Shown piece after piece: positions 33,556 to 47,696 of a stretch of DNA of 64,000 bases; position 1 is the first letter of the stretch, and every line of letters starts with the position of its first letter. The position numbers were made by a program, and so were the translations under genes. The notes under the pieces are model-generated. The model saw only the letters and a program-made list of their open reading frames with translations, was not told where the DNA came from and did no database searches. This stretch comes from Candidatus Sungiibacteriota bacterium (GTDB taxonomy: Bacteria > Patescibacteriota > Minisyncoccia > Sungbacterales > JACQCQ01): positions 65,991 through 129,990 of the forward strand of contig JACQCQ010000009.1 in the NCBI GenBank assembly GCA_016201505.1, written 5' to 3'.

Positions 33556-33634
33556 AAATTAAGATAACGCGTTGCAATTTCGACTAGAGCGTGCCACTTT
33601 AATCTGGGTGCTTCCAAAACGAAGAATGTTAAAT

Positions 33635-33862: not shown

Positions 33863-33869
33863 GATCTAT

Positions 33870-34124: not shown

Positions 34125-34231
34125 AAAACCCGAAGATAGATATTATACAATCTACCGTATTAATGGTCAGAAATCAATCATCCGGCATCATCCAATATCA
34201 ATACTCTAATCTTTCTATAAAGTCTTTTACC

Positions 34232-34330
34232 CCTCACGCCAGAAAGCTCCGTTTGTAAAGACGGAGACGAATAGCTAAAAAACGCGAAGTAGAGGCCAGA
34301 AAGCCATGAGTGTACACCCGTAGTGTGGGA
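34232..34330. repeat. Second copy of the approximately 95-bp repeat
   Basis: See 20228-20325. Confidence 0.5.
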
Positions 34331-34357
34331 GTTTACGAGAATTTGCGCCCCAGCATT

Positions 34358-34645
34358 TCAACCCAAATAAATCCGTGCCAGCTGATAATGCCCCCACAAA
34401 ATCTTCGGATCAATCGCCACCGCTTTTTTGTAGCCTTTTTCTGCGAGATTTAAATCATACGCCCCGCCGTTGAAGTAATAGCCGCCAATTTGAGAGGCAA
34501 GTTTAGCGTCTTTTCTATCAAGCATTATGGCAATTTGTCCCCACCGATGATGCTCCCAGGCTATTTCAGCGAGTGTAGTGCCTACAGAATACAAAATCAA
34601 CGCACAAAAAAACAAAACAGCAACAATAGCGTGCCAAGATTTCAT
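34358..34645 (-). pseudogene. Truncated paralogue (N-terminal 95 aa) of the TPR gene 32395-33177
   Basis: MKSWHAIVAVLFFCALILYSVGTTLAEIAWEHHRWGQIAIMLDRKDAKLASQIGGYYFNGGAYDLNLAEKGYKKAV aligns residue by residue. Confidence 0.5.
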
Positions 34646-34746
34646 CCCGTTAGAGAATTAACGAGTAACTTTATGGCAAGTTTAATGTCTCTATGTGTCG
34701 TGAGCCTCATTTTGAAATACAGCCCCGATTAATTCTCTAACGGGAT
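34644..34746. repeat. MITE-like element with ATCCCGTTAGAGAATTA TIRs (perfect 17-bp)
   Basis: atcccgttagagaatta ... taattctctaacgggat. The start codon of the truncated TPR paralogue lies in the TIR. Confidence 0.6.
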
Positions 34747-34837
34747 TCATCCATTCACGATCGCGTCTGCCTGCTCGCCTCGCTGGAGCTTTGGCGAAGC
34801 GGGCTGGCAGAGCTTCTAATTGGTATTCATAAAAAAA

Positions 34838-35035
34838 TTAAGATCCCCAATAACAAACGGGGTATTCCCAATACTCGACGTACGCATAGGGTTTCGGATC
34901 CTTTTCCAGAACGTCAATAATCATAGTGTCTAGGCGGCGTTTGATCGCGCCGGCACGATGGACAATGTCCAATTCCTTCTTTCGGAAAAGCGGAATCTTG
35001 CCGAAATAGTGACCCCACGGTATCTGCCATCGCAA
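34838..35035 (-). pseudogene. Fragment paralogous to 33214-33555
   Basis: HYFGKIPLFRKKELDIVHRAGAIKRRLDTMIIDVLEKDPKPYAY compared with the full copy. Confidence 0.4.
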
Positions 35036-35134
35036 TACTTACTGTATGAGCTGGATATCCCCCGTGCATATTGAGCATTTCTTAACAGATCGCTTCTTGA
35101 TTTCTCTTCTCACCATAAAGAAGATGATACTGAC

Positions 35135-35395
35135 TCAAGAATACAAGTTACTATGCTTATCGATAATGGTAAACTCAACAGTAGTCTCATCGAGAGTTTT
35201 ATAGAAAGCACGGAAATCGCCAGTGACATTGATACTGCGGAAATCCCGCCACTCACCATGGAGAGCATGATTGTTGAGTGTCGGGTTAAAGGGATCAGCC
35301 ATAAATAGCCGAAGCCTTTTCTTGAATTTGTTTCTTACCGATACCGGAAGTTTTTGATAGTTTTTATCAAAATTCTTATGAAAGAGAACTTTCAT
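35135..35395 (-). CDS. RelE/YafQ-type toxin
   Basis: FDKNYQKLPVSVRNKFKKRLRLFMADPFNP...GDFRAFYK. Confidence 0.8.
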   Translation of the reverse strand: MKVLFHKNFDKNYQKLPVSVRNKFKKRLRLFMADPFNPTLNNHALHGEWRDFRSINVTGDFRAFYKTLDETTVEFTIIDKHSNLYS

Positions 35396-35667
35396 AGTCG
35401 ATCAAGGTACTGAAGTGCTTCTTTATGGGTGAACGGCCCACGAGCATTCTTCCTGCCCCTGATGTCTTTTATAATTTGCATAAGCAGTTTCTGGGTGCGT
35501 CTGTTCGGTACCGGAGGCGCTGAAAAAATAACCCGCTTTTCCCGTATGAATTCCTTAAGATAGGCGTTAATAATGGTTCCCAACGGAAGTCCAAGCTCCC
35601 GTGCCGCCAGCTGCGCTTCTTCCTTAAGCTTTTTGTCGGTTTTTATATTCAGCAGTATTTTTTCCAT
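35392..35667 (-). CDS. RelB/DinJ-type antitoxin
   Basis: LLNIKTDKKLKEEAQLAARELGLPLGTIINAYLKEFI. Overlaps the toxin by 4 nt. Confidence 0.8.
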   Translation of the reverse strand: MEKILLNIKTDKKLKEEAQLAARELGLPLGTIINAYLKEFIREKRVIFSAPPVPNRRTQKLLMQIIKDIRGRKNARGPFTHKEALQYLDRL

Positions 35668-35816
35668 ATATCCATAATATATACTTTGGTTGTATTTCCC
35701 GTCAATGGTATAGACTGAACCAAATTCAAATTCACGCGGCTTCGGCGAGTGTCGTGCGTAGAGAATACGAAACTGATGCGCCGAAAAATAAAATCACAGT
35801 AAGTAACTGCCAGATC

Positions 35817-36104
35817 TTAGGCATAGGTGTCCTCTCTCCTGAGTCCGCAGTAGTGGAAACTCACTCCACGGTCTTTAATATCATAGCGAAAACGAAGACG
35901 TCCCAAAGACAGCCTCCACCGTCCTTCGCCCTGGGGGATATCGATAAGTTTTTTGATCGCGTAATGATGTGTTTGGTTATACGGATCAGTCTCAAGGATG
36001 CCGATTGCACGAACGTAGATGCCTTTTACCTCCGGGTTACGCTTTATAAGCGCACGAAGCAGGCGCTCAAAATGAGGGGTAGCGGAAACTAAAAAAGACG
36101 GCAT
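35817..36104 (-). CDS. RelE/ParE-family toxin
   Basis: RWRLSLGRLRFRYDIKDRGVSFHYCGLRR. Confidence 0.8.
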   Translation of the reverse strand: MPSFLVSATPHFERLLRALIKRNPEVKGIYVRAIGILETDPYNQTHHYAIKKLIDIPQGEGRWRLSLGRLRFRYDIKDRGVSFHYCGLRREDTYA

Positions 36105-36110
36105 GGGTCC

Positions 36111-36392
36111 TTACCGTTTGATCTTTCTTTCTAGAGAAGGAGAAAGCTCTGCCAAAATTGCCCGAGCCGGACGAGCTTTGCCCGCCAGATATTCTTTTCG
36201 GCTCACTTCAATGTGAGCTTTCACTTTGGGATCTCGTAGCTCGAGATAATCCTCAAACTCGTCAATATCCATAACACCGGCAACAGGGATACCATCCTTT
36301 TCTAAAATTATATATTCCTTGTTTAGATGTACCCGCTTGATAATAGCTCCAAGATTAATCCGGGCTTTTGTAAGTGGGAGACGCTGCACCAT
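36111..36392 (-). CDS. Phd/YefM-family antitoxin
   Basis: LPLTKARINLGAIIKRVHLNKEYIILEKDGIPVAGVMDIDEFEDYLEL. Confidence 0.8.
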   Translation of the reverse strand: MVQRLPLTKARINLGAIIKRVHLNKEYIILEKDGIPVAGVMDIDEFEDYLELRDPKVKAHIEVSRKEYLAGKARPARAILAELSPSLERKIKR

Positions 36393-36564
36393 ACCAATTG
36401 ATTAAGATTGATTAATGCTAGCAATTATACATTATCGACTGGACGAGATTCAAATTCCTGCGGCTTCAGTGAGTGTGGTACTTTGCCAATACAAAAAGTA
36501 GCCGACTATAACCAAGAATAGGATGAGATATGAGATTATTCTTTTCTGCACAGGCAAGTTTCTC

Positions 36565-37293
36565 CTAGTGCCCAATTGCTAGTGTATAAATTAGTGATTC
36601 GTTAACCCCATCAATATTAAGAAGCCTTTCTAGGCTCTCATCTCTTGTGCCCACTAAGGCACAACACTTTAACCCAAGTACATTCGTGGTCAAATATACG
36701 TTTTGACCAATGTGTCCGCTCTCAATAAATATATAGCGATAACCCCTTTCCCCATATTTATTTTGTGTTCTCCAGAAAACCGCGCTCATTAACAAGACCA
36801 CACTGGCATTTTTTACCCACGGATATGTGAAATACGAGTCAATTTCAGCATCAGTAAATTCTCGTTGTTCTAGTATGTCGAGTTGGTGTGTTTTTACATT
36901 ATAGTGATATAGACCAGCGATAATATCTTTACTCGGGCGAAAGATCAGAGGATATATCTCAATAGGGAATCTTCCACCTGCAGATGGTTGTGCCCGAAGT
37001 GGTTGGTTGTCCCTAATGCCATTTTCTCCACAGGAATGCTTAAGTAATACTGAAAGCTCATGAAGCATAATTGGCTCTCGATTAAAATCACGGCGTGATC
37101 TTCTTTGTTTTATCAGATCGAAAAAGTCTGCCCTAAGAGAAATGTTTGCAAGGTCGATTTTAGGTAAGCGGGGGTATGATTTATAGTATATTGTTTTCCA
37201 TTCATCGGGCCATTCTTCAAAAGGAATTGGTGGGTGGCCTTTGGCATGATCTTTTGATGATGAATGGAAGAGGCGAGAAAAATCCGAATTCAT
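36565..37293 (-). CDS. SagB/ThcOx-type dehydrogenase (nitroreductase superfamily)
   Basis: PSAGGRFPIEIYPLIF...GLYHYNVKTHQLD...ESGHIGQNVYL is characteristic of SagB-type FMN dehydrogenases. Confidence 0.7.
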   Translation of the reverse strand: MNSDFSRLFHSSSKDHAKGHPPIPFEEWPDEWKTIYYKSYPRLPKIDLANISLRADFFDLIKQRRSRRDFNREPIMLHELSVLLKHSCGENGIRDNQPLRAQPSAGGRFPIEIYPLIFRPSKDIIAGLYHYNVKTHQLDILEQREFTDAEIDSYFTYPWVKNASVVLLMSAVFWRTQNKYGERGYRYIFIESGHIGQNVYLTTNVLGLKCCALVGTRDESLERLLNIDGVNESLIYTLAIGH

Positions 37294-37467
37294 ATCAACA
37301 CATTATATCTCAACGCATATTGGTTCCAAAACATTAGAGCTTGCTGTCCCCCTCTCAAGCACTTGACAAATTCATTTGCAGGATGTATATAAATAATACA
37401 GGAACTTAATAGGTTATTTGGTCCTTATACCAAGTCGCTCTAATCCTCGAGACTGGAGAACAGAGCA

Positions 37468-37740
37468 ATGATAAAGATACTGTTCTTGGTGCTCTCAATC
37501 TCGGCAGTGGTAGGAGGCGAAGTCTTCGGTCAGGAGACAGGACGTGTTGCTAGCCCGATCGTCGCCACAAGGTCAGATCTTGCGACAGAAAGGGCTATCA
37601 GTGAGGGTCTCAATGCAATCTGCCACGATCGGGGCAGAGGATTTCATTGGGATGGAGAAAAGTGCAACCCTATCAGCGAGGATGCGAGAAAGATCATGAG
37701 AGGGGATATCGAACACCTCAACCAGCCGCCGCTCTTCTAG
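37468..37740 (+). CDS. Small secreted protein (GC-richer segment)
   Basis: Signal peptide MIKILFLVLSISAVVGG, two Cys. Confidence 0.45.
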   Translation: MIKILFLVLSISAVVGGEVFGQETGRVASPIVATRSDLATERAISEGLNAICHDRGRGFHWDGEKCNPISEDARKIMRGDIEHLNQPPLF

Positions 37741-37775
37741 AATGTGACGTGGACCCCGGAAGGAGTAGAGTTCCT

Positions 37776-38393
37776 ATGAGACAAACTCTGTCGCCGGCGA
37801 TTTTCTTAGCCGCCGCCGTACTTCTGACGTCGGCTCCTACGGCCGTTGCGCAATCAGAGGCGCCCCCACCCAATGTGAAAGTTGTCCCATCTCCCAGTCC
37901 AAATCCGGGGAGTTGGTGGCTTCTGGAAACCCCAAGTGGGAGCCTCAAGATCGAGCTTTTGTCGGTTGACGCGAGTAAGTTCGTAGCACGAGTAGGAGAA
38001 CGGCAGGTTCCCTATACTAGGGAATGGAACATGCTGGTGGGCGTCGGAAGAACTGGCGCACCAGTGGACTACAATCCTCACTTGCGTTCGCTTTCCTTTC
38101 CTCTGTGGGAGGGAAAGCGCTGGGGCGGAGTCGTCTGGTGGACAGCTGGACCCGAAAGCGGTTCGTTCTCTGTCAACGCGCAGGCGAAGAAGTGGGAGCG
38201 GATTGGGGTCTTGGCAGGGACGTTCGAAGCGCTGCGTGTCGAGACCACTACTTCAGGGGCACAGCTCAATTTCTGGCTGAAATGCTGGTACGTGCCTGAA
38301 GTTCAGCGCTTCATCAAGTGCGATTCCAACAACGCCAGGTTGCAGTTCGAGCTCTCGCAATACGGCCTTGTTGGTTCAACCGCAAGTCAGTAA
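37776..38393 (+). CDS. Secreted hypothetical protein (GC-richer segment)
   Basis: MRQTLSPAIFLAAAVLLTSAPTAVAQS signal peptide. The ORF track starts earlier, at 37647. Confidence 0.5.
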   Translation: MRQTLSPAIFLAAAVLLTSAPTAVAQSEAPPPNVKVVPSPSPNPGSWWLLETPSGSLKIELLSVDASKFVARVGERQVPYTREWNMLVGVGRTGAPVDYNPHLRSLSFPLWEGKRWGGVVWWTAGPESGSFSVNAQAKKWERIGVLAGTFEALRVETTTSGAQLNFWLKCWYVPEVQRFIKCDSNNARLQFELSQYGLVGSTASQ

Positions 38394-38458
38394 GTCAGGG
38401 AACCATTGATGTAAAGACCAACGGTCCGAGGCATAACCTTGGACTGTTTTATTTGATC

Positions 38459-39463
38459 CTAACTAAAGACAGTGTACATTTTTAATATGCCCGCACCTAC
38501 TCTCATTAAGAGAGAGTCGGGAACGAGATGGAGCGTATTCTCTACGTCATTTTTGGTTGATCGCGTTGGCTTAGCGACGAAATCGTGAATTCCGTTTGAA
38601 CAAAGTTTGAATGCCACGAGACAGCCGCCATGTATCCTGGTCGTTTTGTAGTAATAATCGGAGGGATTTAATATCTCGGCGAGTTTCGGGTCATACAGTA
38701 ACGCGCCCAAGCTGTAAAAAATTAATCCATCCCTATACCTTTCAATTAGCTGCATTCCGTGCGGCTGATGTCCGACGACAATATTCGCTCCATAATCAAT
38801 TGCTAGTCGGTAATACATTTTTTGATGTTCGTCAGGGAAGAAAGAAAATCCCGCATAAACGTTTCCGACTGTGTGCAGCGCGACAATGACAATGTCAGAC
38901 GATACTCTCGCTCGTTTTATCGCACCGGAGAGGTGCTCCTTTGTTAACGACGCTACGCCGCTTTTTCCTTGTGCTGGATGCATATTCTCGTCCAGCAGGT
39001 CGGTCTGTGCTAAAAAAGACACCCGAAGATTTTGAAGGTTAACTACCTTCGGCATGAAAGCCTCATAGTTATCTTCTCCTATTCAGATGAAGTCAATTTT
39101 TTCGGTTTTTAACAAATTAAGGCATTCCTCGAGTGCAGTTCTGCCATAGTCAAAACTATGGTTATTCGCAAAAGATAAAATATAACGGCGATCCCCCCTG
39201 AACAAACTAAAAATCGCTGGGTCAGATCGAAAAAGAAACTCCTGGTTCCCGTTTCTTCTTGGCTGGCCGCCACGGGAAATGACGCCCTCGTAATTAAGAA
39301 ATATTACGTCACTTTTTTCTATGGTGTCTCGAAACTTTCCCCATATAGAATTGTGATCAATCTTGGACACCCCCCTACTAGTTTCCGTATTAAAAATCAA
39401 ATCACCGCCGACTAGAACGGTTCCTTGATATTGACATGCCGTATGTTGAAATATCTGCATCAT
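38459..39463 (-). pseudogene. CapA/PGA_cap-family metallophosphatase homologue interrupted by one in-frame TGA
   Basis: LVGGDLIF...SFANNHSFDYG...KIDFI-TGA-IGEDNYEAFMPKV...VIVALHTVGNVY...IVVGHQPHGMQ. The two ORFs 39083-39463 and 38459-39055 are in the same frame. The stop is at 39083-39085. Confidence 0.6.
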
Positions 39464-39465
39464 TG

Positions 39466-39885
39466 TTATATGGGACGTGGCCGATACCTAGTAAGGTATA
39501 GAACATCAGTTATTTTCCACGCGCCATCTTTACCACGATGGTAATGAACCCGATACATATTGCTTGCCCTCGTATCATTCTGCTGTATTATCTCGAAGAT
39601 TCCTTGCACCGTAGCTTCATCCTCGCTCGCCCGTATTACCGCATTATCCATTTTTGCCGTCTTTAAATTTGAAAGGGTGTTGCTTAAAATTACACTATAC
39701 TCTTCGGTGCCAACCCTTTTATTAACAGTGAGAGAATCTACGAACGCGCCTTCTTCGAAACTCGCTATTATATGTCCAATATCTCTCCGGTTGTAGGCTT
39801 CCAAAAAGTCGGTCATCAGATTCGCGATTTCTTTCTCCCGAAGTGTCGCAGGCTTTTTGTAAAATCTAATAAGTTTTTCTAACAT
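39466..39885 (-). CDS. NTF2/SnoaL-like fold protein
   Basis: 139 aa. EAYNRRDIGHIIASFEEGAFVD pattern, with a conserved His/Asp-rich C-terminal half. Confidence 0.5.
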   Translation of the reverse strand: MLEKLIRFYKKPATLREKEIANLMTDFLEAYNRRDIGHIIASFEEGAFVDSLTVNKRVGTEEYSVILSNTLSNLKTAKMDNAVIRASEDEATVQGIFEIIQQNDTRASNMYRVHYHRGKDGAWKITDVLYLTRYRPRPI

Positions 39886-39974
39886 TTGGGTAATCTTTCA
39901 ACAAAAACCTCGCCAGCTTGATGCGCGGCGTAAGCATAATTTACATTAAAGAATGAAGTCTCTTTAACTCTCCT

Positions 39975-41099
39975 CTATTTATATTTCACTAGCTCGCTAG
40001 TAACTAGCTCCTTTTCCAAATAAAGGCTAACCCAGCTATCGCCTGTTTTAGCCGCATTCTCGAGAGCTGCTTGAGCCTTTTTCTTCTCGCCGGTCTCAAA
40101 ATAAGCAAGGGCTAAAACTCTCCAAGGGGACGCGAAGGCTTTAAGCATCGTCGGATCGCGAGGCCATCCCTCTGCTGGTTCATTAAGATCGTGATCTATT
40201 GGTATCACGTTGTTTTCAAGTTGGCTGATAGCTTCTTTATATTGTTTTAATGCTGTCAGATACATACTAGCCGACGTATTTGCTAGAATCCGTGCGGCAG
40301 GGTGCAGCTTCTGAAAACCCAGACTATTTATTACATCCATCCATTTCTTGAGCAATCTTTGTGTTATATCAGGATTAATCTTAGCTCCTCTAATATTGAT
40401 GGTATCGTTTTCTGATGACAGTGCCTCGTTCCACTTTGCAAGAGTATTTTTTATGTCAGTATCGTCCATGATACTAAGCCGTGCCGGGTATGGTTTCGAG
40501 TGATCTGGTCCCACGATCAGAGATCTTATTTGCGCTGAAGGGGTTACTACGAGACCCATAACCGGATGTGGGAAAAACCGGCCTGACGGTATGAGGTAGT
40601 TACTACCCAGACTTGTTTGATGGACAATAATTTGCTTTTGACTTTCCAGAGATCCAACGATAACTCCATAATATCCACCACCTGGTCTCAGGGACGGGCT
40701 ACCATTCATAATAGAGACAATAATTGGCGTACTCGAAGATTGATTCAAGAAATTGCGAAGACCCCTTTGATTCTGTAGTGTAACAATTTTAGCTTCATAT
40801 CCCTGACTTTCAAAGAATCTTTTGAAATCGGTGAATGTAAAATTTCCCCTAGTCGTTTCAGCGGGCAAGGTTCTTTTGAGATCTAAAAATGATAGCCTTT
40901 TATCGCCCCAATATCGGAGTATCATCGCCGCCGTCGACTCAACATCATACGCTAGCGGCGTTCCGGAGAAAGTGCCGAAATAAGGAACACCGAGAATAAT
41001 ATTATCAATGGCGCGGGTGGATAATGAATAATAGAAAACACCTAAAACTACCAGCCCAATCAGTAGAGCAATTGAGGTGAGTTTCGTCCTGCGCGTCAT
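39975..41099 (-). CDS. Membrane-anchored peptidase-C39-like (apparently inactive) plus TPR-like domain protein
   Basis: N-terminal TM. C39-like core (…AAMILRYWG…PIIVSIMNG…GGYYGVIVG) lacks the catalytic Cys/His. C-terminal helical repeats. Confidence 0.55.
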   Translation of the reverse strand: MTRRTKLTSIALLIGLVVLGVFYYSLSTRAIDNIILGVPYFGTFSGTPLAYDVESTAAMILRYWGDKRLSFLDLKRTLPAETTRGNFTFTDFKRFFESQGYEAKIVTLQNQRGLRNFLNQSSSTPIIVSIMNGSPSLRPGGGYYGVIVGSLESQKQIIVHQTSLGSNYLIPSGRFFPHPVMGLVVTPSAQIRSLIVGPDHSKPYPARLSIMDDTDIKNTLAKWNEALSSENDTINIRGAKINPDITQRLLKKWMDVINSLGFQKLHPAARILANTSASMYLTALKQYKEAISQLENNVIPIDHDLNEPAEGWPRDPTMLKAFASPWRVLALAYFETGEKKKAQAALENAAKTGDSWVSLYLEKELVTSELVKYK

Positions 41100-41120
41100 A
41101 GAAGTTTATACTTAAGTATT

Positions 41121-41375
41121 TTAGAAAACGGTACAGCAATCGTTACCACAGCCAGAGCCAGTAGAACCCTCAGAGCCAGTAGAACCCTCAGAGCCAGTAG
41201 AGCCGCCGGGGTCAACATAAACATCCGCCGAAGCATGATTGGTTAAGGAGTTACCGAGAGCAAGTTCTTCACCACCTTGTTTTTTGCCGCTAAAAATATT
41301 TTGACCAACAGAAATCAAAGCTAGGGCAATTGCGAACAAAACCAGCTTTGAAATGTTTCTGAGAAAGTGGGACAT
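41121..41375 (-). CDS. Small protein with signal/TM segment, (GSTGSE)n tandem repeat and C-terminal Cys-rich tail; candidate RiPP precursor
   Basis: MSHFLRNISKLVLFAIALALISVG...GSTGSEGSTGSEGSTGSGCGNDCCTVF-stop. Directly downstream of the YcaO gene on the same strand. Confidence 0.55.
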   Translation of the reverse strand: MSHFLRNISKLVLFAIALALISVGQNIFSGKKQGGEELALGNSLTNHASADVYVDPGGSTGSEGSTGSEGSTGSGCGNDCCTVF

Positions 41376-41447
41376 CTTTGTCCATAGTATAGCAAAAATA
41401 ATTTCTGACAATCAAGCTATATTCACAATCAGTTTTGGTTACTGTTA

Positions 41448-43016
41448 CTATGGAAAAGGGTGCGGAAAAGTGTTGAATTTTCTCTTAATCTGATAGCCCA
41501 GTTTTGGCAGGACTGTTCTAAGTCTCGAGGCTCCCAAGGGTGCAAAAGTTTCGTTAAGGTATAATGGGACTAATTCAGGCACCACAACCTGAGTTACATT
41601 ATAACCCAATTCATGGTTTAAGAAATAATCGCGAACCTCAAATCCGTAAACTTCGTAGCCTATTCCCAACGACTCGACCCTTTTGACCAAGAAGTTTAAT
41701 TCATCACGAGTTGTCGCAAAGCTTCTTGGAAAATCAAAGCGGACTTTTTGAATATCCTGGGCATGTCCTTCAAGGAAAAAAGCAATGTGTTCGCGCATCT
41801 TTGGGTTAGCCCAAAGATGCAAACGTTCTTCTTGACCTAATGAAGGGTCACCAAACGGCCTATAATTATCAGCTAACTCATATACGGGATGACTGTCTTT
41901 CTTAGATCGGAGACTATAATAAACTCCCCAAGCTTCTTCATATGCCTTTGTCGCCGCGATTTCTGGATTTGCGTGACAGCCACCCCCCATTGATAAGTAG
42001 GGCCCCACCCAGGATTCATCTAGAATGATCGCAACAAAACTGGGCGGGCCTATGTCGAGTGTTGTGTTTAATATGTGACACTTGAATCTGCATCTTTGCA
42101 CTTGGAGTATTGAACTCCTCAAATCTTTGTTGAGAGACGAAATATCAATTTGTGGCGGAGAGATTCTATTAAGCCAGAAAATGAGAAAGGCATCTCTTTC
42201 AATAAGTTCATATAAACCCGCCAGCATTGCCCCCTCTCGATTAAACATCCCCCCGCTACCATTTGTATTTGGCTCTCTAAGAAATACTTCTGGTATGTCC
42301 CCGCTGATGTAGTTCCAAAAGATTAGCTGTGCGGGCAGCATGGTTTTTTGTCCTGTAGACACTCGAACACCTTGAACCCAGTGAAGTCTATGCTCTGGGG
42401 TCCAAGCAAAACGATTTGATTGATTTTGCTGTTCCTCCGAGAAACTCACCAACTTCTTAGGATCTAAAGCCCGGGCTCTTCTGTTCAAATCTACATAAGA
42501 ATTCGTCACAAAATTTTTTCTACTGTACTTAGTCAAATAATATCGCTCCAAAAATTCCCCGATACTTTTACTAACCATACTAATTAAGTCTTGACCGGAG
42601 CTATGTCCGAATGTACGAACAATTTTTCTCCCATCAGTATTATATGTATCATCAATGGATGGAGTTATATCAATCCGACTGAATGCTGGAGAGTCGTTAA
42701 AACGGCGGTGGTCTATGAATACGTCTTTGACAAGTCCACGCTCCTTTAATTTTCTAATAATTTTTATAAACGGACGTAGGGATTCCTCATATTTATTGAG
42801 GATTGCATAGGAAGTCCTTTCAGAAATTTTATCAAGGTCTTTATACAACCTTGATAATATCCTCTTCTCGAAAGAATTGCTCTCCAGATCGTAGAAACTT
42901 GCTGTCAAAGAATTCTGTCCCGGCCCCCCTGCATCGAAATATTCGGACATTAATACAAGCCCATCATAATCAAGCGGCTGGTAGAGACTGAAGTCTTGTT
43001 CTTTTGGTGTGCTCAC
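41448..43016 (-). CDS. YcaO-domain protein (ATP-dependent cyclodehydratase/amide-activating family)
   Basis: TNGSGGMFNREGAMLAGLYELIERDAFLIFWLNRISPPQID is the signature YcaO ATP-binding region. 522 aa with an approximately 170-aa N-terminal extension. Confidence 0.85.
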   Translation of the reverse strand: MSTPKEQDFSLYQPLDYDGLVLMSEYFDAGGPGQNSLTASFYDLESNSFEKRILSRLYKDLDKISERTSYAILNKYEESLRPFIKIIRKLKERGLVKDVFIDHRRFNDSPAFSRIDITPSIDDTYNTDGRKIVRTFGHSSGQDLISMVSKSIGEFLERYYLTKYSRKNFVTNSYVDLNRRARALDPKKLVSFSEEQQNQSNRFAWTPEHRLHWVQGVRVSTGQKTMLPAQLIFWNYISGDIPEVFLREPNTNGSGGMFNREGAMLAGLYELIERDAFLIFWLNRISPPQIDISSLNKDLRSSILQVQRCRFKCHILNTTLDIGPPSFVAIILDESWVGPYLSMGGGCHANPEIAATKAYEEAWGVYYSLRSKKDSHPVYELADNYRPFGDPSLGQEERLHLWANPKMREHIAFFLEGHAQDIQKVRFDFPRSFATTRDELNFLVKRVESLGIGYEVYGFEVRDYFLNHELGYNVTQVVVPELVPLYLNETFAPLGASRLRTVLPKLGYQIKRKFNTFPHPFP

Positions 43017-43067
43017 AAGAATATCTAAAATAGTATCGCTATTACCTTACTCTAGATATACGAAGAG

Positions 43068-43121
43068 GGGCAAATTTTGTTTAGGGGACAGATTTCGCAC
43101 TTGGGAGAGCGGGCGAGGCAG
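43068..43121. repeat. Decayed copy of the nth 3' terminus (remnant C1)
   Basis: The reverse complement reads CLARSPKCEICPLNKICP. It is homologous to nth codons at 46824-46887. Confidence 0.8.
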
Positions 43122-43187
43122 ATAGCTCAAGACTGGCGAGAGTCCCAGTGGCTTGAATGTATACTAATAATATTCTAATCTGGTGTC

Positions 43188-43427
43188 ATGACGCAAAAAG
43201 TATTGAAAGTTGGCTCTTCGGCGGCGGTGACGATTCCCAAAAAGTCTTTAAAAGAACTGGGGCTTAAAATCGGCGATGAGGTTCAGGTGGATGTGGATCA
43301 GCGGAGGAAGTTGGTTTCAATTACTCCTGCCCAAAATCTCTCCAAGGAAGACTCTAAAATTGCAAAATTGACACTTGCATTCATCGAGAGATACCGAAAA
43401 GACTTAGAATCGCTCGCCGATAAATAA
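43188..43427 (+). CDS. AbrB/SpoVT-fold antitoxin partnered with Doc
   Basis: MTQKVLKVGSSAAVTIPKKSLKELGLKIGDEV. Confidence 0.7.
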   Translation: MTQKVLKVGSSAAVTIPKKSLKELGLKIGDEVQVDVDQRRKLVSITPAQNLSKEDSKIAKLTLAFIERYRKDLESLADK

Positions 43428-43817
43428 GTGAAGTATTTACGATACTCACAGATTTTTCTGATTCATTCAATGATGATTGATGAAACAGGTGGCAGTCACG
43501 GCGTGAGAGATTCTCATGCAATTTTAAGTTTGGAACATTCTCCGAGGCAAAAAGTATTTGGGAAAACACTCTATCCTTCAGTGTACCAAAAGGCCGCGGT
43601 GTATGCGCGAGCTATCATTATGGAGCATCCATTTATTGACGGAAATAAGCGGACCGGCATTTCAGCAGCCAGTATTTTTTTGGAGAATAATGGTTACCAA
43701 CTCATTGCCAAAGAGGGCGAACTTGAGTCGTTTGCATTGCGAATTGTGGATCAAAAATATGGAATAGCAGAAATTGCCGGCTGGTTTCGCAAGAACTCAA
43801 GGAGAAATAAAAAATAA
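43428..43817 (+). CDS. doc: Doc (death-on-curing) Fic-family toxin
   Basis: Fic motif HPFIDGNKRTGISAASIFL. Confidence 0.85.
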   Translation: MKYLRYSQIFLIHSMMIDETGGSHGVRDSHAILSLEHSPRQKVFGKTLYPSVYQKAAVYARAIIMEHPFIDGNKRTGISAASIFLENNGYQLIAKEGELESFALRIVDQKYGIAEIAGWFRKNSRRNKK

Positions 43818-43838
43818 ATTTTATCCCAGGCGAGTAGT

Positions 43839-43870
43839 TTATTCTCATATTCTTGAGAATATGAGAATAA
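43839..43870. repeat. AT-rich perfect palindrome P (variant) at a cassette boundary
   Basis: ttattctcatattct-tg-agaatatgagaataa. Related to 45304-45339 and 45969-45998. Confidence 0.6.
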
Positions 43871-43911
43871 CGCTATGCTTGGTAAGCTTTTAGAACTAGA
43901 TTCTCGAAGAG

Positions 43912-43965
43912 GGGCAAGTTTTGTTTAGGGGACAGATTTCGCACCTGGGAGAGCGGGTGGTGCGG
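43912..43965. repeat. Decayed copy of the nth 3' terminus (remnant C2)
   Basis: gggcaagttttgtttaggggacagatttcgcacctgggagagcggg. Confidence 0.8.
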
Positions 43966-44041
43966 CTGAACATGTTGGCGCAATAAAGGGCGAGAGTCCC
44001 AGCGGCTTGAATGTATACTAATAATATACTAATCTTTACAC

Positions 44042-44149
44042 ATGACGCAAAAAGTATTGAAAGTCGGCTCTTCGGCGGCCGTTACGATTTCCAAAAAATC
44101 TTTGAAAGAGCTCGGTCTTAAAATCGGCGCAATATTAACATATGATTGA
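44042..44149 (+). pseudogene. Truncated copy (35 codons) of the Doc-partner antitoxin gene
   Basis: First 31 codons are identical to 44667-44897, then it diverges to a stop. Confidence 0.5.
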
Positions 44150-44160
44150 CTCATATTATT

Positions 44161-44385
44161 ATGAAAAGCATCATACAATTTCATATTCATAGGGGTGAAA
44201 CCCACTATATTGCGGAGGGAGTTGATTTACCGGTCGTAACTCAAGGGAAAACCCTAGATGAGCTCGCCGCGAATCTCAAAGAGGCGGTTGCCTTGCAACT
44301 CGAAGGAGAGAACCCGGCTGATTTTGGTCTGACGTCGAGTCCTTCTGTTTTGGCAAATTTCGAACTTTCCGAGATTCGTGCCTAA
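44161..44385 (+). CDS. hicB: HicB antitoxin
   Basis: YIAEGVDLPVVTQGKTLDELAANLKEAVALQLEG. Confidence 0.8.
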   Translation: MKSIIQFHIHRGETHYIAEGVDLPVVTQGKTLDELAANLKEAVALQLEGENPADFGLTSSPSVLANFELSEIRA

Positions 44386-44623
44386 ATTGAGAATTCTTTC
44401 AGGGCACGATGTTGTTGCGATCTTAGAAGGCCTCGGTTTTTCTGTGGTTGCCCAAAAAGGCAGTCATGTAAAATTGCGCAGAACTGTTGAGGGTGGAACA
44501 AAGCAGAGCCTCACAATCCCGCTACATGCCGAGATGGATAAATGGACGCTCAAAGCGATTTACACGCAAGCTTCTCGGTATATTCCCGAAACTGAATTGC
44601 GAGAGCACTTCTATACCAAGTAG
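44378..44623 (+). CDS. hicA: HicA toxin
   Basis: ILEGLGFSVVAQKGSHVKLRRTVEGGTKQSLTIPLHAEM. Confidence 0.85.
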   Translation: MPKLRILSGHDVVAILEGLGFSVVAQKGSHVKLRRTVEGGTKQSLTIPLHAEMDKWTLKAIYTQASRYIPETELREHFYTK

Positions 44624-44666
44624 GTGCGTAGGAGTTTAGATTATATTAATTTCATCTGTACACGTT

Positions 44667-44897
44667 ATGACACAAAAAGTATTGAAAGTCGGCTCTTCGG
44701 CGGCCGTTACGATTTCCAAAAAATCTTTGAAAGAGCTCGGTCTTAAAATCGGGGATGAGGTGCGAGTGAACATTAATCACAAAGAAAAGCTTGTGATTAT
44801 TGAGCCGGCGCATCAAGTGAAAAAGGAATTGCTTGATTGGACGGAGCAGTTTATTAAAACCTACCGGCCGGCCTTGCTCGCGCTCGCGAAAAAATGA
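44667..44897 (+). CDS. AbrB/SpoVT-fold antitoxin (second copy)
   Basis: Paralogue of 43188-43427. Confidence 0.7.
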   Translation: MTQKVLKVGSSAAVTISKKSLKELGLKIGDEVRVNINHKEKLVIIEPAHQVKKELLDWTEQFIKTYRPALLALAKK

Positions 44898-45286
44898 CCC
44901 GATATCTGGATCCCGAGGAGATGCTCGTGATTCACGCGAAGATTATAGACGAAACGGGTGGACTCCACGGCGTACGAGATATGAACCTATTCGCCTCGAT
45001 TGCCGGGCGGCCGAAAATGCAGTTTGGCGGGAAAGAATTATATCCCTCGGTATTTGAAAAAGCAGCGGCATATTTTGAGTCTACTGCCTTTCATCATGTC
45101 TTTGTGGATGGAAACAAACGAACGGCAATCGCCATAGCTGCTCGTTTTCTTTTTCTCAATGGATACGACCTAACAACCTCAAATAAAGTTCTGGAGAGGT
45201 TTGTGCTTGGTACAGTCACGAAGAAATCTAATTTAAAAATCATCGCATTGTGGTTTCAAAAACATTCAAAGAAAATCAGAAAGTAG
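44894..45286 (+). CDS. doc: Doc toxin (second copy)
   Basis: HHVFVDGNKRTAIAIAARFL. Confidence 0.85.
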   Translation: MTRYLDPEEMLVIHAKIIDETGGLHGVRDMNLFASIAGRPKMQFGGKELYPSVFEKAAAYFESTAFHHVFVDGNKRTAIAIAARFLFLNGYDLTTSNKVLERFVLGTVTKKSNLKIIALWFQKHSKKIRK

Positions 45287-45303
45287 TTTTATGAGGCCGG
45301 ACG

Positions 45304-45339
45304 GTTTATTCTCAAGTTCTTAAGAACTTGAGAATAAAC
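45304..45339. repeat. 36-bp perfect palindrome P
   Basis: gtttattctcaagttctt|aagaacttgagaataaac. Confidence 0.6.
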
Positions 45340-45361
45340 ATTCTTCTAGACATGGGATGAA

Positions 45362-45427
45362 GGGCAAATTTTGTTTAGCGGGCAGATGAGGCATTGGGGG
45401 GAGCGGGCGCGGCAGACGGCGCGGCCC
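45362..45427. repeat. Decayed copy of the nth 3' terminus (remnant C3)
   Basis: gggcaaattttgtttagcgggcagat...gggggagcgggcgcggcagacggcgcggccc. Confidence 0.8.
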
Positions 45428-45697
45428 GTCGCTACATTTGACGATACACGGAGTGGTCTCCCACTGAATGGAACCATGCAGTATTTTTCTTGATAAATTC
45501 AAAAATGATTCGATGGCGTGTATCGATAGAGAACGCCTAGAAATCTTTAAGACGTCCGTGCAATTTATGAGTGCCCGGTCTGGGGTCAAATTGGTTTTTG
45601 CGGAATATACACTCTTTTTCTTCTGCTACTTTTTTAACGGACAGCGCGAGGGTTTTATATTCTCGCCTGAATTTCGAGGAATAGAAGATTCGCATTA

Positions 45698-45910
45698 GCG
45701 CAGGTCTCTCAACGAACGAAGTAACTTACCCTTGCCCCGTTTTAGCTCATCCCGGCTTTCTCCAAGCCCTTCGGCCAACTTTCCTTCAAGCCAAAGACGA
45801 ACGAGCGTTCAGAAGAATTCGCTTTTTGTCGAGAATTGGTTTTGCTTTAATTGTTTCTCAACCTCAGCCGCCATTTCGCGGGGTAGTGAGATATTAATGA
45901 CGCTCCGCAT
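45698..45910 (-). pseudogene. Ribbon-helix-helix (CopG/ParD-like) antitoxin homologue with an in-frame TGA at codon 34
   Basis: MRSVINISLPREMAAEVEKQLKQNQFSTKSEFF-TGA-TLVRLWLEGKLAEGLGESRDELKRGKGKLL. The stop is at 45809-45811. Confidence 0.5.
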
Positions 45911-45968
45911 AAGATGTGTAATACTTTATTTTACAAGACTATCTTCTTTGATTTCTCCATCAATAACT

Positions 45969-45998
45969 TATTCTCAAGTTCTTAAGAACTTGAGAATA
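45969..45998. repeat. 30-bp perfect palindrome P
   Basis: tattctcaagttctt|aagaacttgagaata. Confidence 0.6.
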
Positions 45999-46023
45999 GG
46001 CTCTTTGGCTGAACCCTACGAGA

Positions 46024-46087
46024 TGGGCAGATTTTGTTTAAGGGGCATATCACGCACTTGGGGGAGCGGGCCTGGCAGACGGCGCGG
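46024..46087. repeat. Decayed copy of the nth 3' terminus (remnant C4, closest to the live gene end)
   Basis: The reverse complement reads AVCQARSPKCVICPLNKICPS followed by a divergent tail. Confidence 0.85.
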
Positions 46088-46101
46088 CGTGACCGACTCA
46101 T

Positions 46102-46428
46102 TTATTTTTTCAGGCGAGCGGCCAGGGCGAAGCTGTACAAATAATTGTCAAGACCTTGAAGGTCGCTGCCATATGCGCTACCTCCCGAAAAAGCATCGGC
46201 TAAAGTTTCACGCAAGCGCGAAAGTTCTTTGAGCTTAGATACCGAGCGCCATCGTCTGTCACTGCGCGTCAAATCAATAAGCGCAAGCGCCCGCTCGAAA
46301 GCTTTTTCATAATCGCCCAGATTTCGCGCGCTTCTCATGCGCGACAATTCGCTCCCGATATTCCCCAGTTGATCCGCAAATGAGAGGCCCTCCCATCGCT
46401 CCTTCTCAATCGAATGATGAACGTTCAT
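46102..46428 (-). CDS. Hypothetical protein, downstream member of an overlapping gene pair
   Basis: 108 aa. 4-nt overlap with the upstream gene. No confident family. Confidence 0.45.
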   Translation of the reverse strand: MNVHHSIEKERWEGLSFADQLGNIGSELSRMRSARNLGDYEKAFERALALIDLTRSDRRWRSVSKLKELSRLRETLADAFSGGSAYGSDLQGLDNYLYSFALAARLKK

Positions 46429-46772
46429 GATGTCGTGCGCTCGGCGATAATTGACTTTATTAATTCACGGATTGATTCATCTTCTATCCCGCGGGATTTA
46501 TTTCCTTGCGACGGCCGGATATTAATCATCGAGTCGAATTCAATCCACTCGGCCGGAGACCGCTCGAGATAAAGATTAATTCCCCATATTTGTTCTTGTT
46601 TTGAGCCGTCATGCAGCAAGACCGCCTCTTCGTCTGCGTGGAGCTCTCCCCCAACTGCCAGGATGCGGCGTTCGACATCCACCGCGGCCTTCACTAAGTT
46701 GCCAAACTGCTGATCGGCGATGGCTTTCAATTCTGCCTTTTTGATTTTGTCCCTCACGACCACAATTTCCAT
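46425..46772 (-). CDS. Hypothetical protein, upstream member of the overlapping pair (TA-like organisation)
   Basis: 115 aa. The bicistronic overlap resembles an MNT/HEPN-type or other TA pair, but no motif is confirmed. Confidence 0.45.
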   Translation of the reverse strand: MEIVVVRDKIKKAELKAIADQQFGNLVKAAVDVERRILAVGGELHADEEAVLLHDGSKQEQIWGINLYLERSPAEWIEFDSMINIRPSQGNKSRGIEDESIRELIKSIIAERTTS

Positions 46773-46807
46773 ATCGACAGTGTATCACAGCGGCACTTGC
46801 GAAGATT

Positions 46808-47497
46808 TTATGTCTTTGCCGACGGACAGATTTTGTTTAAGGGACATATCACGCACTTGGGGGAGCGGGCCTGGCAGACGGCGCGGCCGTGATCGATGAA
46901 AAGCGTGTTGACTTTGGGCCACATTTCTTTTTTGTCTTTATAAATCTCCATTAAATCTTTTTCGATTTTATTGGGGTCGTCATGTTTGGTGAGTCCCAAG
47001 CGCTGGGAGACGCGGCGGACGTGGGTATCAACGGCTATGCCGCCAATAAGCTCATGAACATTCCAAAGCACGATGCTCGCCGTTTTTCGGCCAACACCGC
47101 GGAGCGTGATTAAGTCCTCAATTGTTTTGGGAATTTTCCCGCCAAAGTTTTTTTCGATAAGTTTTGCCGTCGCGATAATAGCCTTCGCCTTTGTTTGGTA
47201 TAACCCAATGCGTGAAATTTCTTTGCTAAATATTTTTGGATTAGCATTGGCAAAGTCTTTCGGTGTTTTGTATTTTTTGAATAGTTCAGCCGTGACAATA
47301 TTTACCATCTTATCAGTCGCTTGAGCCGATAAAATAACCGCCGCCAGCATCTGCATCGGCGTTTTGTAAAGAAGCGCGGTCTTTGATTCGGGGTTTAATT
47401 TGTCGAGACCGGCTAAAATCTTGGCCGCCCGCTTTTTCTTTTCGGCCGGAGATTCCTTTTTAATCCAATTTTTCCTATACTCGTTGTATTGTCCCAT
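46808..47497 (-). CDS. nth: Endonuclease III
   Basis: HhH-GPD (LRGVGRKTASIVL) and C-terminal 4Fe-4S loop CQARSPKCVICPLNKICP. The ORF track extends it to 47509. Confidence 0.9.
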   Translation of the reverse strand: MGQYNEYRKNWIKKESPAEKKKRAAKILAGLDKLNPESKTALLYKTPMQMLAAVILSAQATDKMVNIVTAELFKKYKTPKDFANANPKIFSKEISRIGLYQTKAKAIIATAKLIEKNFGGKIPKTIEDLITLRGVGRKTASIVLWNVHELIGGIAVDTHVRRVSQRLGLTKHDDPNKIEKDLMEIYKDKKEMWPKVNTLFIDHGRAVCQARSPKCVICPLNKICPSAKT

Positions 47498-47696
47498 GTT
47501 GGTTGCCACTAAAATTTACTCCATCAATGAAATCGTGCCTGTCTCTGGCAACTACATCTGCGTCCCTTGTGGCTATGTGCAGTATTTTGAAGCGGGGGAC
47601 AAGTTCATTGAGTGCCTTGCCTGTCTCGCGGGGACTCTCTATGGCCCGGCCGGGTTTCAGAGTCCGGCAGATGAGTTTTGGCAGTTTGTCGGCTAG
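47496..47696 (+). CDS. Small zinc-ribbon protein
   Basis: YICVPCGYVQYFEAGDKFIECLAC. Start inferred at the second Met. Confidence 0.35.
   Translation: MLVATKIYSINEIVPVSGNYICVPCGYVQYFEAGDKFIECLACLAGTLYGPAGFQSPADEFWQFVG

Follow-up and report, generated by a model that had tools for sequence, protein, structure and literature searches.

Behind the endonuclease III gene nth, in the 64,000-nucleotide stretch of DNA analysed here (the window), four small cassettes stand in a row, bounded by copies of the gene's own 3' end. We argue that this array was, on balance, probably built by accretion, the serial site-specific insertion of integrase-less cassettes at the 3' end of nth, as the arrangement of the sequence suggests. 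Accretion at gene 3' ends is already known as a kind of event, and the nth array would be a variant of that kind.

The nth locus and its gene-end copies

The host is a tiny-genome groundwater bacterium (Candidatus Sungbacteria). The window nth is identical to P0001, endonuclease III from a Candidatus Sungbacteria MAG, and no relative above 70% identity was found. Upstream of the array are nth and htrA, and the 3.8 kb interval from nth to a YcaO gene holds the whole array. The nth ends are listed below with the E values of a nucleotide profile that was built from the live nth ends of seven genomes, with the remnants left out.

46808-47509, minus strand: nth (endonuclease III), intact; Pfam HhH-GPD (3e-23), HHH and EndIII_4Fe-2S; alternative ATG start at 47497
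46821-46894, minus strand: E0, the live nth end and attL-like copy, GATCAC (Asp-His) through Pro-Ser
46022-46094, minus strand: E4, nth-end remnant R4, RRAVCQARSPKCVICPLNKICPSRRVQ..., E 2.3e-11
45359-45430, minus strand: E3, nth-end remnant R3, GRAVCRARSPQCLICPLNKICPSSHV and a stop, E 5.2e-10
43909-43975, minus strand: E2, nth-end remnant R2, its 5' third decayed, ...RSPRCEICPLNKTCPSSRI and a stop, E 6.9e-8
43052-43131, minus strand: E1, R1, presumed the oldest nth-end remnant, AICLARSPKCEICPLNKICPSSYI and a stop, E 2.9e-12
43016: start of the YcaO gene, 36 nt downstream of E1

The shared unit is 67 nt long and occurs in five same-strand copies (43065-43131, 43909-43975, 45359-45425, 46022-46088 and 46821-46887), the last of which is the live end. 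The four extra copies that the preliminary description placed downstream of nth in one orientation are therefore real. They align to the nth 3' ends of relatives too, since the profile of live ends finds all four (E 6.9e-8 to 2.9e-12). A dispersed family can be set aside: matches to a 19-nt degenerate core number five in the 64 kb, exactly these copies, where shuffles expect 0.03. Identity to the live end is 64/67 for R4, with an identical tract over the first 44 nt, 54/67 for R3, 44/67 for R2 and 51/67 for R1. Since R2 scores lower than the more distant R1, the gradient is not monotonic, and the earlier statement that similarity falls with distance from nth has to be dropped.

The remnants as former working ends

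In each of the four extra copies the frame is kept and gives ...C-x2-C-x5-C-P-S... Past Pro-Ser the tails differ completely among copies. Three remnants end in SS[RYH][IV] and a stop, like the live ends of relatives, and R4 has no stop. The live end of the window itself finishes with AKT and a stop, unlike the SSR[VIA] or SARV before the stop in relatives.

Nei-Gojobori counts over the 23 codons, a short alignment, give pS 0.61 and pN 0.07 for the live end against R3, 0.66 and 0.11 against R1, and 0.49 and 0.09 for R4 against R3. The live end and R4 differ by 4 synonymous changes and 1 non-synonymous change, and a random control gives pS 0.69 and pN 0.56. The copies differ mainly at synonymous sites and therefore diverged under protein-level selection, as working nth ends. 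Judged by this pattern, each remnant was a functional nth end until its displacement. The preliminary description was right that the remnants are nth 3' ends. Decay of a local duplication does not fit, since the frame and the cysteines are kept and synonymous changes dominate.

It is possible to picture a history in which the nth end was duplicated locally in tandem and decayed neutrally while toxin-antitoxin genes landed independently, or in which the copies are silent C-terminal cassettes that vary Nth. In favour, the copies are close together in the same orientation and their frames are intact. However, a pN/pS of ~0.1-0.17 among copies with near-saturated synonymous sites is incompatible with neutral decay in situ, and the wholly different tails speak against it too. 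Programmed variation would hardly be expected to act on the Fe-S loop of a repair enzyme, and the window has no invertase or shufflon recombinase. We find both versions very hard to credit. A diversity-generating retroelement was also considered and rejected: there is no reverse transcriptase in the window, and the differences between the live end and R4 (T/C, T/C, G/A and G/T at third positions) are not adenine-specific.

Cargo of the cassettes

The cassettes are 0.6-1.4 kb in size, and three of the four carry toxin-antitoxin modules.

46102-46772, minus strand: cassette 4 cargo, presumed the newest, a DUF5674 gene and an overlapping partner
46425-46772, minus strand: DUF5674 gene, Pfam DUF5674 8.6e-34
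46102-46428, minus strand: 108-aa gene overlapping the DUF5674 gene
45432-45910, minus strand: cassette 3 cargo, an RHH antitoxin gene and a RelE/YafQ-like toxin gene, each with a single nonsense change
45695-45910, minus strand: RHH antitoxin gene, in-frame TGA at 45809-45811, weak NCBIfam ParD match
45432-45695, minus strand: RelE/YafQ-like toxin gene, in-frame TAG at 45537-45539, weak NCBIfam YafQ/RelE match
43976-45286, plus strand: cassette 2 cargo, antisense to nth; Pfam MazE_antitoxin, Fic/Doc and HicA_toxin
44043-44150, plus strand: truncated abrB
44146-44385, plus strand: hicB
44378-44623, plus strand: hicA, Pfam HicA_toxin
44667-44897, plus strand: abrB2
44894-45286, plus strand: doc2
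43188-43817, plus strand: cassette 1 cargo, abrB1 and doc1 (Pfam), antisense to nth
43188-43427, plus strand: abrB1
43428-43817, plus strand: doc1

Pfam and the translations bear out the cargo as first described: AbrB/MazE-Doc twice, HicB-HicA, a truncated abrB, an RHH gene with a TGA and an overlapping gene pair. The TAG in the RelE-like toxin gene is a second in-frame stop that the first description missed. In L081 and L194 the homologues are intact, with R in place of the TGA of the RHH gene and W in place of the TAG of the toxin gene. The cassette 4 cargo has no match in NCBIfam, PADLOC or PDB. The same DUF5674 pair lies behind nth in L001, L081, L082, L083 and L197 as well. In cassette 2 the alignment shows that the 5' end of abrB is duplicated around hicBA (~90 nt, ~99% identical), so abrB is truncated because the hicBA insertion duplicated this end.

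The hairpins

45968-45999: family-1 palindrome, lying upstream of the RHH gene and 22 nt past E4 on the 3' side (nth sense)
45304-45339: family-1 palindrome, perfect over 18+18 nt, between E3 and the 3' end of doc2; 32-nt core at 45306-45337
43839-43870: family-1c palindrome variant, TTATTCTCATATTCT TG AGAATATGAGAATAA

Three nearly identical AT-rich palindromes had been claimed, 15-35 bp from the remnants. Two of them (45306-45337 and 45968-45999) do differ by one mismatch, but the third (43839-43870) is an 84% variant. Counted from the full paired extents (45304-45339 for the middle one), the gaps to the remnants are 22, 19 and 38 nt, so the third is outside that range.

The hairpin sits 3' of an nth-end copy, and this includes the live nth ends of L180 and L194. 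The module of nth end plus family-1 hairpin is common to units with differing cargo (C1-C3 of the window, L180 and L194); no hairpin accompanies cassette 4 or remnant R1. The family-1c core flanks an HTH gene in L197. A sister family of palindromes (family 2) is seen at sites away from nth, between convergent genes (25518-25551), and also on the flanks of genes for ArsR-type HTH proteins. Since the hairpin follows live nth ends and has a sister family elsewhere, it looks like a terminator or operator rather than a crossover site; it is conserved and accompanies the nth-end copy. The boundary of palindrome and remnant, as first proposed, is better read in this way. The hairpin would serve as a two-way terminator or as a site where a regulator binds, keeping nth insulated from the cargo.

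Another line of reasoning would make the hairpins the recombination sites. The array would then be an integron-like platform or CALIN with attC-like sites that act as folded single strands for an integron- or Xer-type tyrosine recombinase encoded elsewhere, and the nth-end copies would merely travel along. The cassettes are small, rich in toxin-antitoxin genes, found in both orientations and without an integrase among them. Chromosomal integrons share with the nth array such small cassettes, a structured repeat at each boundary and a newest cassette that is proximal. Only the hairpin folds strongly, and its middle 4 nt vary in a compensatory way that preserves the pairing (TCAA/TTGA, CAAT/ATTG, TTAC/GTAA and TCAT/ATGA). 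Divided as 13+6+13, the 32-nt palindrome even resembles a lox, FRT or dif core.

However, there is no intI, attI or Pc beside the array, and the palindromes as read from the sequence are perfect; they contain neither extrahelical bases nor RYYYAAC/GTTRRRY cores and so misfit the attC model. An assignment to integrons or CALINs was rejected on these grounds. The nth cassettes also have their own promoters, and unlike in integrons what is repeated is the end of a gene on which protein-level selection acts. That selection puts the joint inside nth and not at the hairpin. The hairpin-free cassette 4 and R1, and family 2 away from nth, argue against this scenario as well, and a dif site is not in line with the lack of a GC-skew sign change at the locus. 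We consider it quite improbable that the hairpins are the attachment sites.

Probable serial insertion at the end of nth

We argue instead for insertion into nth itself. Four successive insertions would have hit one site, near the Asp-His-Gly codons ~70 nt before the stop. Each cassette would bring, at one of its edges, a copy of the last ~22 nth codons. In most cases the hairpin would come 1-40 nt after this copy, and then the cargo, which is the DUF5674 gene pair in the newest unit and otherwise a toxin-antitoxin operon. Reciprocal recombination between the cassette copy (attP-like) and the chromosomal nth end (attB-like) would join a new working end to nth. The older end would be pushed downstream and stay as a remnant, so the newest cassette would adjoin nth. 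The recombinase would be encoded outside the array and act in trans. From this arrangement we infer the site-specific enzymology, a circular intermediate and the order of events.

One line of evidence is the 5' limit of the similarity. For E4 of the window and for E1 of L194, where the cargo is unrelated, it falls at the GATCAC(G)G (Asp-His-Gly) codons. Among the handful of joints that are readable, window E3 lies within 5 nt of this point, and window E3 and E1 within 5-15 nt. Such a shared limit, together with the remnants, fits the insertion of DNA that would supply a replacement end at a fixed site.

The same topology may have arisen without a dedicated recombinase. Circularised or imported DNA of diverged relatives, with an nth 3' segment and its neighbours, could enter by a RecA-dependent Campbell-type single crossover or by homology-facilitated illegitimate recombination after natural transformation, and either would duplicate the short shared segment. 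The hicBA insertion within abrB has the same signature in unrelated sequence, and one site-specific enzyme would not explain both sites. In L184 an AbiEii pair lies between 192-nt direct repeats. L001 has a nearly empty 'cassette', with 64 nt from the live end to the remnant, which is awkward for an inserted element. The arrays examined lack a recombinase, the 44-nt identical tract of the live end and R4 is enough for RecA, and the window has putative type IV pilus genes (read from ORF translations). On the other side, illegitimate joints should scatter and not share a limit in two genomes with unrelated cargo. The older copies, 66-81% identical to the live end, are a poor RecA substrate, and the nth-end and hairpin module on differing cargo looks like a portable attachment module. 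We hold this route to be unlikely.

Other Sungbacteria

In L001 (E 4e-4, with further weaker pieces), L183 (E 5e-4) and L194 (E 6e-11, frame intact), nth is likewise followed by remnants. The cargo there differs and comprises an HTH_5 gene, AbrB-RelE, RHH-RelE and the DUF5674 pair. L177 and L192 have no cassettes, and housekeeping genes directly follow nth; lineages thus vary in this region. In the related P0014 population, ten contigs share a single fixed gene order with no polymorphism. DUF5674 is 59% identical between the window and L001 where nth is 66%, and 71% between L001 and L081 where nth is 83%. Cargo identity thus tracks nth identity, with no sign of recent horizontal transfer of the cargo. 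Repeated site-specific integration, as first proposed, is in line with the remnants, their recurrence and the shared 5' limit; the fixed P0014 order and the tracking of nth by its cargo count against it.

Recombinases

No recombinase was found in or next to the arrays of the window, L001, L183 and L194, and none of the window array ORFs is an integrase, as first noted. No tyrosine recombinase is present among window ORFs of at least 160 aa (translations read by eye). The sole recombinase in the window is a large serine recombinase (61106-62659) that abuts tRNA-Val 14 kb away. It is Ccr/XisF-like, with 75-105 bits against family cut-offs of 375-900. The window also has a tRNA-Cys 3'-end remnant. 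Integration that duplicates gene ends therefore does occur in this genome.

Comparison with known systems

In the literature searched, nth was not found as an attachment site. Part of the ICE/IME literature treats tandem accretion as a concept. There, tandem units lie between direct repeats that stem from a housekeeping gene's 3' end, some units have no recombinase and are served in trans, and the incoming end keeps the gene intact. Likewise five same-strand nth-end copies bound four units, nth is intact, and the remnants keep frame and cysteines. ICESt1/ICESt3 at fda of Streptococcus thermophilus are an example, where integrative elements and CIMEs accrete at the 3' end of a gene. The nth units differ in their small size, in carrying only toxin-antitoxin or other small gene pairs, in that none has an integrase, and in their host, a Candidate Phyla Radiation bacterium.

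SCC/SCCmec composite islands insert at the 3' end of rlmH (orfX). They too are serial insertions at the 3' end of a conserved gene, and recombinase-less pseudo-SCC units lie between target-site repeats with the recombinase in trans. SCC repeats are ~15-20 bp, with Ccr large serine recombinases inside at least one unit, whereas the nth repeat is ~70 nt of coding sequence. An SCC-like element was rejected: the target is nth, and nothing links the serine recombinase to it.

We regard a broader idea as rather unlikely. Sungbacteria, and perhaps other CPR bacteria, might have a cassette-capture platform that resembles an integron in function but not in construction, with the Fe-S-loop end of nth as the attachment site, toxin-antitoxin units of ~1 kb, a portable module of nth end and hairpin, and a host recombinase that acts in trans, possibly on the folded hairpin. 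If so, nth would be a dedicated landing pad through which addiction or defence modules could be gained and lost by tiny genomes that need no integrases of their own.

IMEX elements at dif (CTXphi, TLCphi and the gonococcal island) are integrated by the host XerCD (PMC3442271, PMC4246890). There too integrase-less elements stack at one chromosomal site via host recombinases, older sites remain as non-functional copies, and the attachment region forms a hairpin. The nth site differs in that it lies inside coding sequence, and an Xer/dif element was rejected since the locus has no GC-skew switch and no dif-like motif was seen by eye. It must be added that the Endo III protein assists CTXphi integration, as the title of PMC3442271 states. 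The link to Endo III here is apparently through the DNA of the gene rather than the protein, and may be a coincidence.

Four displaced ends of nth

The gene for endonuclease III, nth, is followed by four extra copies of its own 3' end. Their coordinates bear out the preliminary description, which placed four such copies downstream of nth in the same orientation (R1-R4, with R4 nearest nth).

46808-47509, minus strand: nth (endonuclease III; Pfam HhH-GPD, HHH and EndoIII Fe-S domain)
46022-46088, same orientation as nth: R4, nth-end copy, ~67-nt repeat
45359-45425, same orientation as nth: R3, nth-end copy, ~67-nt repeat
43909-43975, same orientation as nth: R2, nth-end copy, ~67-nt repeat
43065-43131, same orientation as nth: R1, nth-end copy, ~67-nt repeat

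The nth product is identical to a Candidatus Sungbacteria MAG protein named endonuclease III, whose database record uses a 229-aa start instead of the 233-aa form. A 19-nt degenerate core matches exactly five places in the 64-kb window, all of them nth ends, against 0.03 expected. A nucleotide profile (nhmmer) was made solely from the live nth ends of seven genomes, with the remnants left out. Checked in this way against the nth 3' ends of relatives, R4, R3, R2 and R1 are all recovered (E = 2.3e-11, 5.2e-10, 6.9e-8 and 2.9e-12). The core-match count and the profile together rule out chance or a dispersed repeat as the source of the copies. An assembly artefact is unlikely; the joints between cargo and remnant must be present in real molecules. 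The same pattern is seen in independent assemblies of related nth loci (L182/L183 from two runs, L001 and L194). The array is a real feature, beyond chance and recurrent over lineages. Similarity to the live end had been said to fall with distance from nth, but it is not monotonic (R4 64/67, R3 54/67, R2 44/67, R1 51/67).

The strongest single result is the selection signature of the copies. All four keep C-x2-C-x5-C-P-S in frame. R1-R3 end in SS[RYH][IV]-stop, which matches the live ends of relatives, and R4 ends in SRRV and then reads through, its stop lost. The present live tail is AKT-stop. Synonymous differences dominate throughout, and between the live end and R4 there are 4 synonymous and 1 non-synonymous.

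Nei-Gojobori counts over 23 codons
Live end vs R3: pS 0.61, pN 0.07
Live end vs R1: pS 0.66, pN 0.11
R4 vs R3: pS 0.49, pN 0.09
Live end vs unrelated control: pS 0.69, pN 0.56

The copies do not come from local duplication and decay, because such differences build up only in a translated, working protein. On this codon pattern every copy was once an nth end, whether in the window lineage or in the genome that the incoming DNA came from, and was then displaced. The synonymous bias supports the earlier proposal that each insertion brought a replacement end. It contradicts local duplication or programmed C-terminal variation of nth, which we consider very improbable. A diversity-generating retroelement (VR/TR) is ruled out, as the window lacks an RT and mismatches are not confined to adenines.

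Position of the joint and proposed mode of insertion

The joint was mapped by pairwise alignment of each remnant with its own live end. Similarity starts at GATCAC(G)G (Asp-His-Gly codons) in R4, which follows a DUF5674 pair, and in the L194 remnant, which follows AbrB-RelE. It starts at most 5 nt from this point in R3 and within ~15 nt in R1. The second copy in L001 appears by eye to start around the Gly-Arg codons just downstream, where automatic alignment missed the register. The 3' limit is Pro-Ser, and the tails beyond are unrelated. The nth-end copy folds into no structure; only the palindrome folds strongly at the boundary.

We argue that the best-supported model, and one somewhat better than an even bet, is a series of reciprocal exchanges in which the nth-end copy of a small cassette recombines with the end of nth on the chromosome. 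The YcaO gene, whose start lies 36 nt beyond the end of R1, would originally have followed nth directly. A small circular cassette would carry an attP-like nth-end copy, and this would recombine reciprocally and repeatedly with the chromosomal end, with the crossover near GATCACGG and the recombinase supplied in trans. The newest unit would end up adjoining nth.

Several points stand against this model. Recombinase genes were looked for among the array genes and none is present, which agrees with the earlier statement that no integrase lies inside. Cargo divergence follows nth divergence, one sampled population is monomorphic, and L001 has a nearly empty unit. There is also a second target, hicBA in abrB, which one site-specific enzyme would not explain. 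Because of these points the main rival, to which we give a much smaller but real chance, is homology-driven Campbell-type or homology-facilitated insertion of DNA from diverged relatives. A 5' limit that different genomes share in spite of unrelated cargo, read at a handful of joints, is a prediction of a fixed crossover and not of illegitimate joints. Hairpin recombination of the integron or Xer type is improbable: the palindromes lack attC features, no intI was found and the locus has no skew switch.

Cargo of the four intervals

Cassette 4 (adjoining nth): DUF5674 gene and an overlapping 108-aa partner
Cassette 3: RHH antitoxin gene with in-frame TGA, and RelE/YafQ-like toxin gene with in-frame TAG
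Cassette 2: truncated abrB, hicB-hicA, abrB-doc
Cassette 1 (farthest from nth): second abrB-doc

This confirms the cargo first described, with small corrections such as the added in-frame TAG. Where the window genes have these two stops, the intact RHH and RelE-like homologues of L081 and L194 encode Arg and Trp, so each window gene was disabled by a single transition. The DUF5674 pair has no match in NCBIfam, PADLOC or PDB, and the array has none among phages and plasmids. Known RNA families are absent from the array, with only tRNAs elsewhere in the window. G+C is 0.42-0.45 in window 32000-46000, a part that spans the array and the YcaO region, and 0.48-0.52 elsewhere.

In cassette 2, hicB-hicA lies within abrB, of which ~90 nt of the 5' end are duplicated nearly identically (44043-44131 and 44667-44755). 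The upstream abrB copy is truncated and retains a promoter resembling that of cassette 1. The downstream copy is complete, and the sequence preceding it is new. The nth locus shows the same signature of insertion with duplication; here it affects the 5' end of a gene.

Palindromes

45968-45999: perfect 32-nt palindrome, near R4
45306-45337: perfect 32-nt palindrome, near R3
43839-43870: palindrome variant (84%), near R2
25518-25551: family-2 perfect palindrome, TCATATCTCTAATTCG TG CGAATTAGAGATATGA, between convergent genes

Three near-identical palindromes had been reported 15-35 bp from the remnants. Two are near-identical, the third is the 84% variant, and the measured spacing is 19-38 nt. 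The family-1 hairpin, TATTC-N4-GTTCTTAAGAAC-N4-GAATA and variants, stands 3' of nth ends in the window, L180, L194 and L195, and of the live end in L180 and L194. Its middle positions differ with perfect compensation, so the pairing is conserved. It is positive in a loose terminator scan on both strands. Family 2, CTAATTCG-YR-CGAATTAG, is found 3' of nth ends in L001, L171 and L183, upstream of nth in L083 and to either side of genes for ArsR-type HTH proteins in L183, L001 and L184. The divergent HTH gene of L197 is flanked by family-1c palindromes, not family 2. The 25518-25551 core recurs in other Sungbacteria (L001, L171, L183, L184) and represents a candidate operator/terminator family conserved between genomes. 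The window has many further long perfect palindromes, and no palindrome core was found in viral contigs.

We conclude that the hairpin is cassette-borne, immediately 3' of the cassette's nth-end copy. In cassettes 1 and 2 the nth end and doc converge, with the hairpin between them. The palindrome had been read as a boundary site of the cassette. Since family 2 also occurs away from nth, we reread it as most likely a predicted two-way terminator or regulator-binding site that would insulate nth from the cargo. It may still have a role in recombination.

Two very long loop-less palindromes at 16139-16192 and 16846-16883 (27- and 19-nt arms, common core ATTACTTTACACGATCGTGTAAAGTAAT) flank a 187-aa ORF (16185-16748), a layout like that around HTH genes in related loci. 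The HTH_5 gene at the AbiEii locus of L184 has two flanking copies of a TTATTCGTACGAATAA palindrome.

Related genomes

No relative of the window Nth above 70% identity was found. Strain-level presence or absence is thus unreadable, and the comparison is at the level of lineages. BLAST of each locus against its own nth end was too insensitive and missed L001, so the nhmmer profile was used instead. Significant remnants are found in 4 of the 12 Sungbacteria-type lineages recovered: the window and the three below.

L001, 2742-2779: remnant, E 4e-4; a split second nth-end copy 3' of the same DUF5674 pair
L183, 2234-2281: remnant after an HTH_5 gene, E 5e-4
L194, 3753-3822: full-length, in-frame remnant, E 6e-11; AbrB-RelE pair before it, RHH-RelE pair (homologous to window cassette 3) after it

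In the other loci described here no remnant reaches significance. Two hairpins occur in L171, together with what by eye seems a decayed remnant. In L180 the live end is followed by a hairpin, then an AbrB-RelE pair, then another hairpin where the contig stops. The DUF5674 pair is inverted in L197, and in L177 and L192 housekeeping genes directly follow nth. In L195 a hairpin is followed by ~1.5 kb of GC-rich DNA 3' of nth (8900-10500) in which neither a convincing ORF nor an Rfam family at gathering score was found. A family-1 palindrome (8862-8895) lies at one edge of it, and at the other a CCGTTACCACGG-type palindrome (~10319-10360), of a kind also present in L001. Ten population contigs of the L081 type carry nth, the DUF5674 pair and RHH-RelE with 0 remnants and 0 polymorphism. 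Differences in cargo and remnants are seen between lineages, but not within this one population.

Extra copies are absent from some 150 nth loci of Bathyarchaeota, other CPR and other bacteria, which rules out a general trait of nth. Remnants in several Sungbacteria lineages and their absence from these loci mean that the array is recurrent and clade-specific, with lineage-dependent cargo. A TruD 'duplication' in L184 was rejected as a second target gene, since the two genes are 25% identical paralogues.

Many Sungbacteria nth contigs end 0.1-1.7 kb downstream of nth (L173-L176, L180-L181, L198-L203), and six end inside or near a palindrome (L173, L174, L176, L180, L181, L182). These stops could be a technical effect of the palindrome on assembly or population heterogeneity there. 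In L081 (5133-5516) and L161-L170 the interval from htrA to nth holds a gene of the 23S_rRNA_IVP family (four-helix bundle). It is present in most contigs of the P0014 population, to which L081 belongs, but uncalled in L162 and a shorter ORF in L164.

Comparison with known systems

To our knowledge, the movement of chromosomal toxin-antitoxin modules is largely unexplained so far, and CPR mobile elements are poorly known. SCC composite islands accrete at rlmH. They follow the same logic as the nth array, as does ICE/IME/CIME accretion at gene 3' ends. Integron arrays have cassettes of similar size and a similar TA content, and IMEX arrays likewise lack integrases. The nth array differs from these systems in its target, in its very small units uniformly without integrases, in a ~70-nt repeat that is coding sequence under selection and in its CPR host. 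No paper in the searched literature names nth as an attachment site. Endo III protein is reported to help Xer-mediated CTXphi integration (PMC3442271), a parallel that is possibly no more than a coincidence. A 2026 survey found chromosomal toxin-antitoxin modules only weakly associated with integrases (PMC13617665).

At nth, displaced gene ends that retain the selection signature of their working past record how four small cassettes were inserted, at one landing site common to at least four lineages. Should a recombinase turn up, the locus would represent a minimal cassette system built on a portable attachment module of ~110 nt and a target that is a conserved protein-coding gene. Such a system would be of interest for reduced-genome evolution and might serve as a tool. 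Should there be no such enzyme, the locus offers a clear example from nature of cassettes accreting without a recombinase.

Other repeats and a recombinase gene

In L184, 192-nt direct repeats (9299-9490 and 10670-10861, 99.5% identical) surround a pair of genes, one for 75 aa and one AbiEii. The 3' end of the window tRNA-Cys (59852-59887) has an 86% identical 36-nt copy at 59968-60003, 116 nt downstream and directly before tRNA-Leu. It looks like an integration or excision scar at a tRNA gene. The sole recombinase seen in the window is a large serine recombinase of 517 aa (61075-62659, minus strand) with weak XisF/CcrB/CcrC-like NCBIfam matches. Its gene extends into the 3' half of a plus-strand tRNA-Val, probably at the boundary of an integrated element reaching past 62.7 kb.
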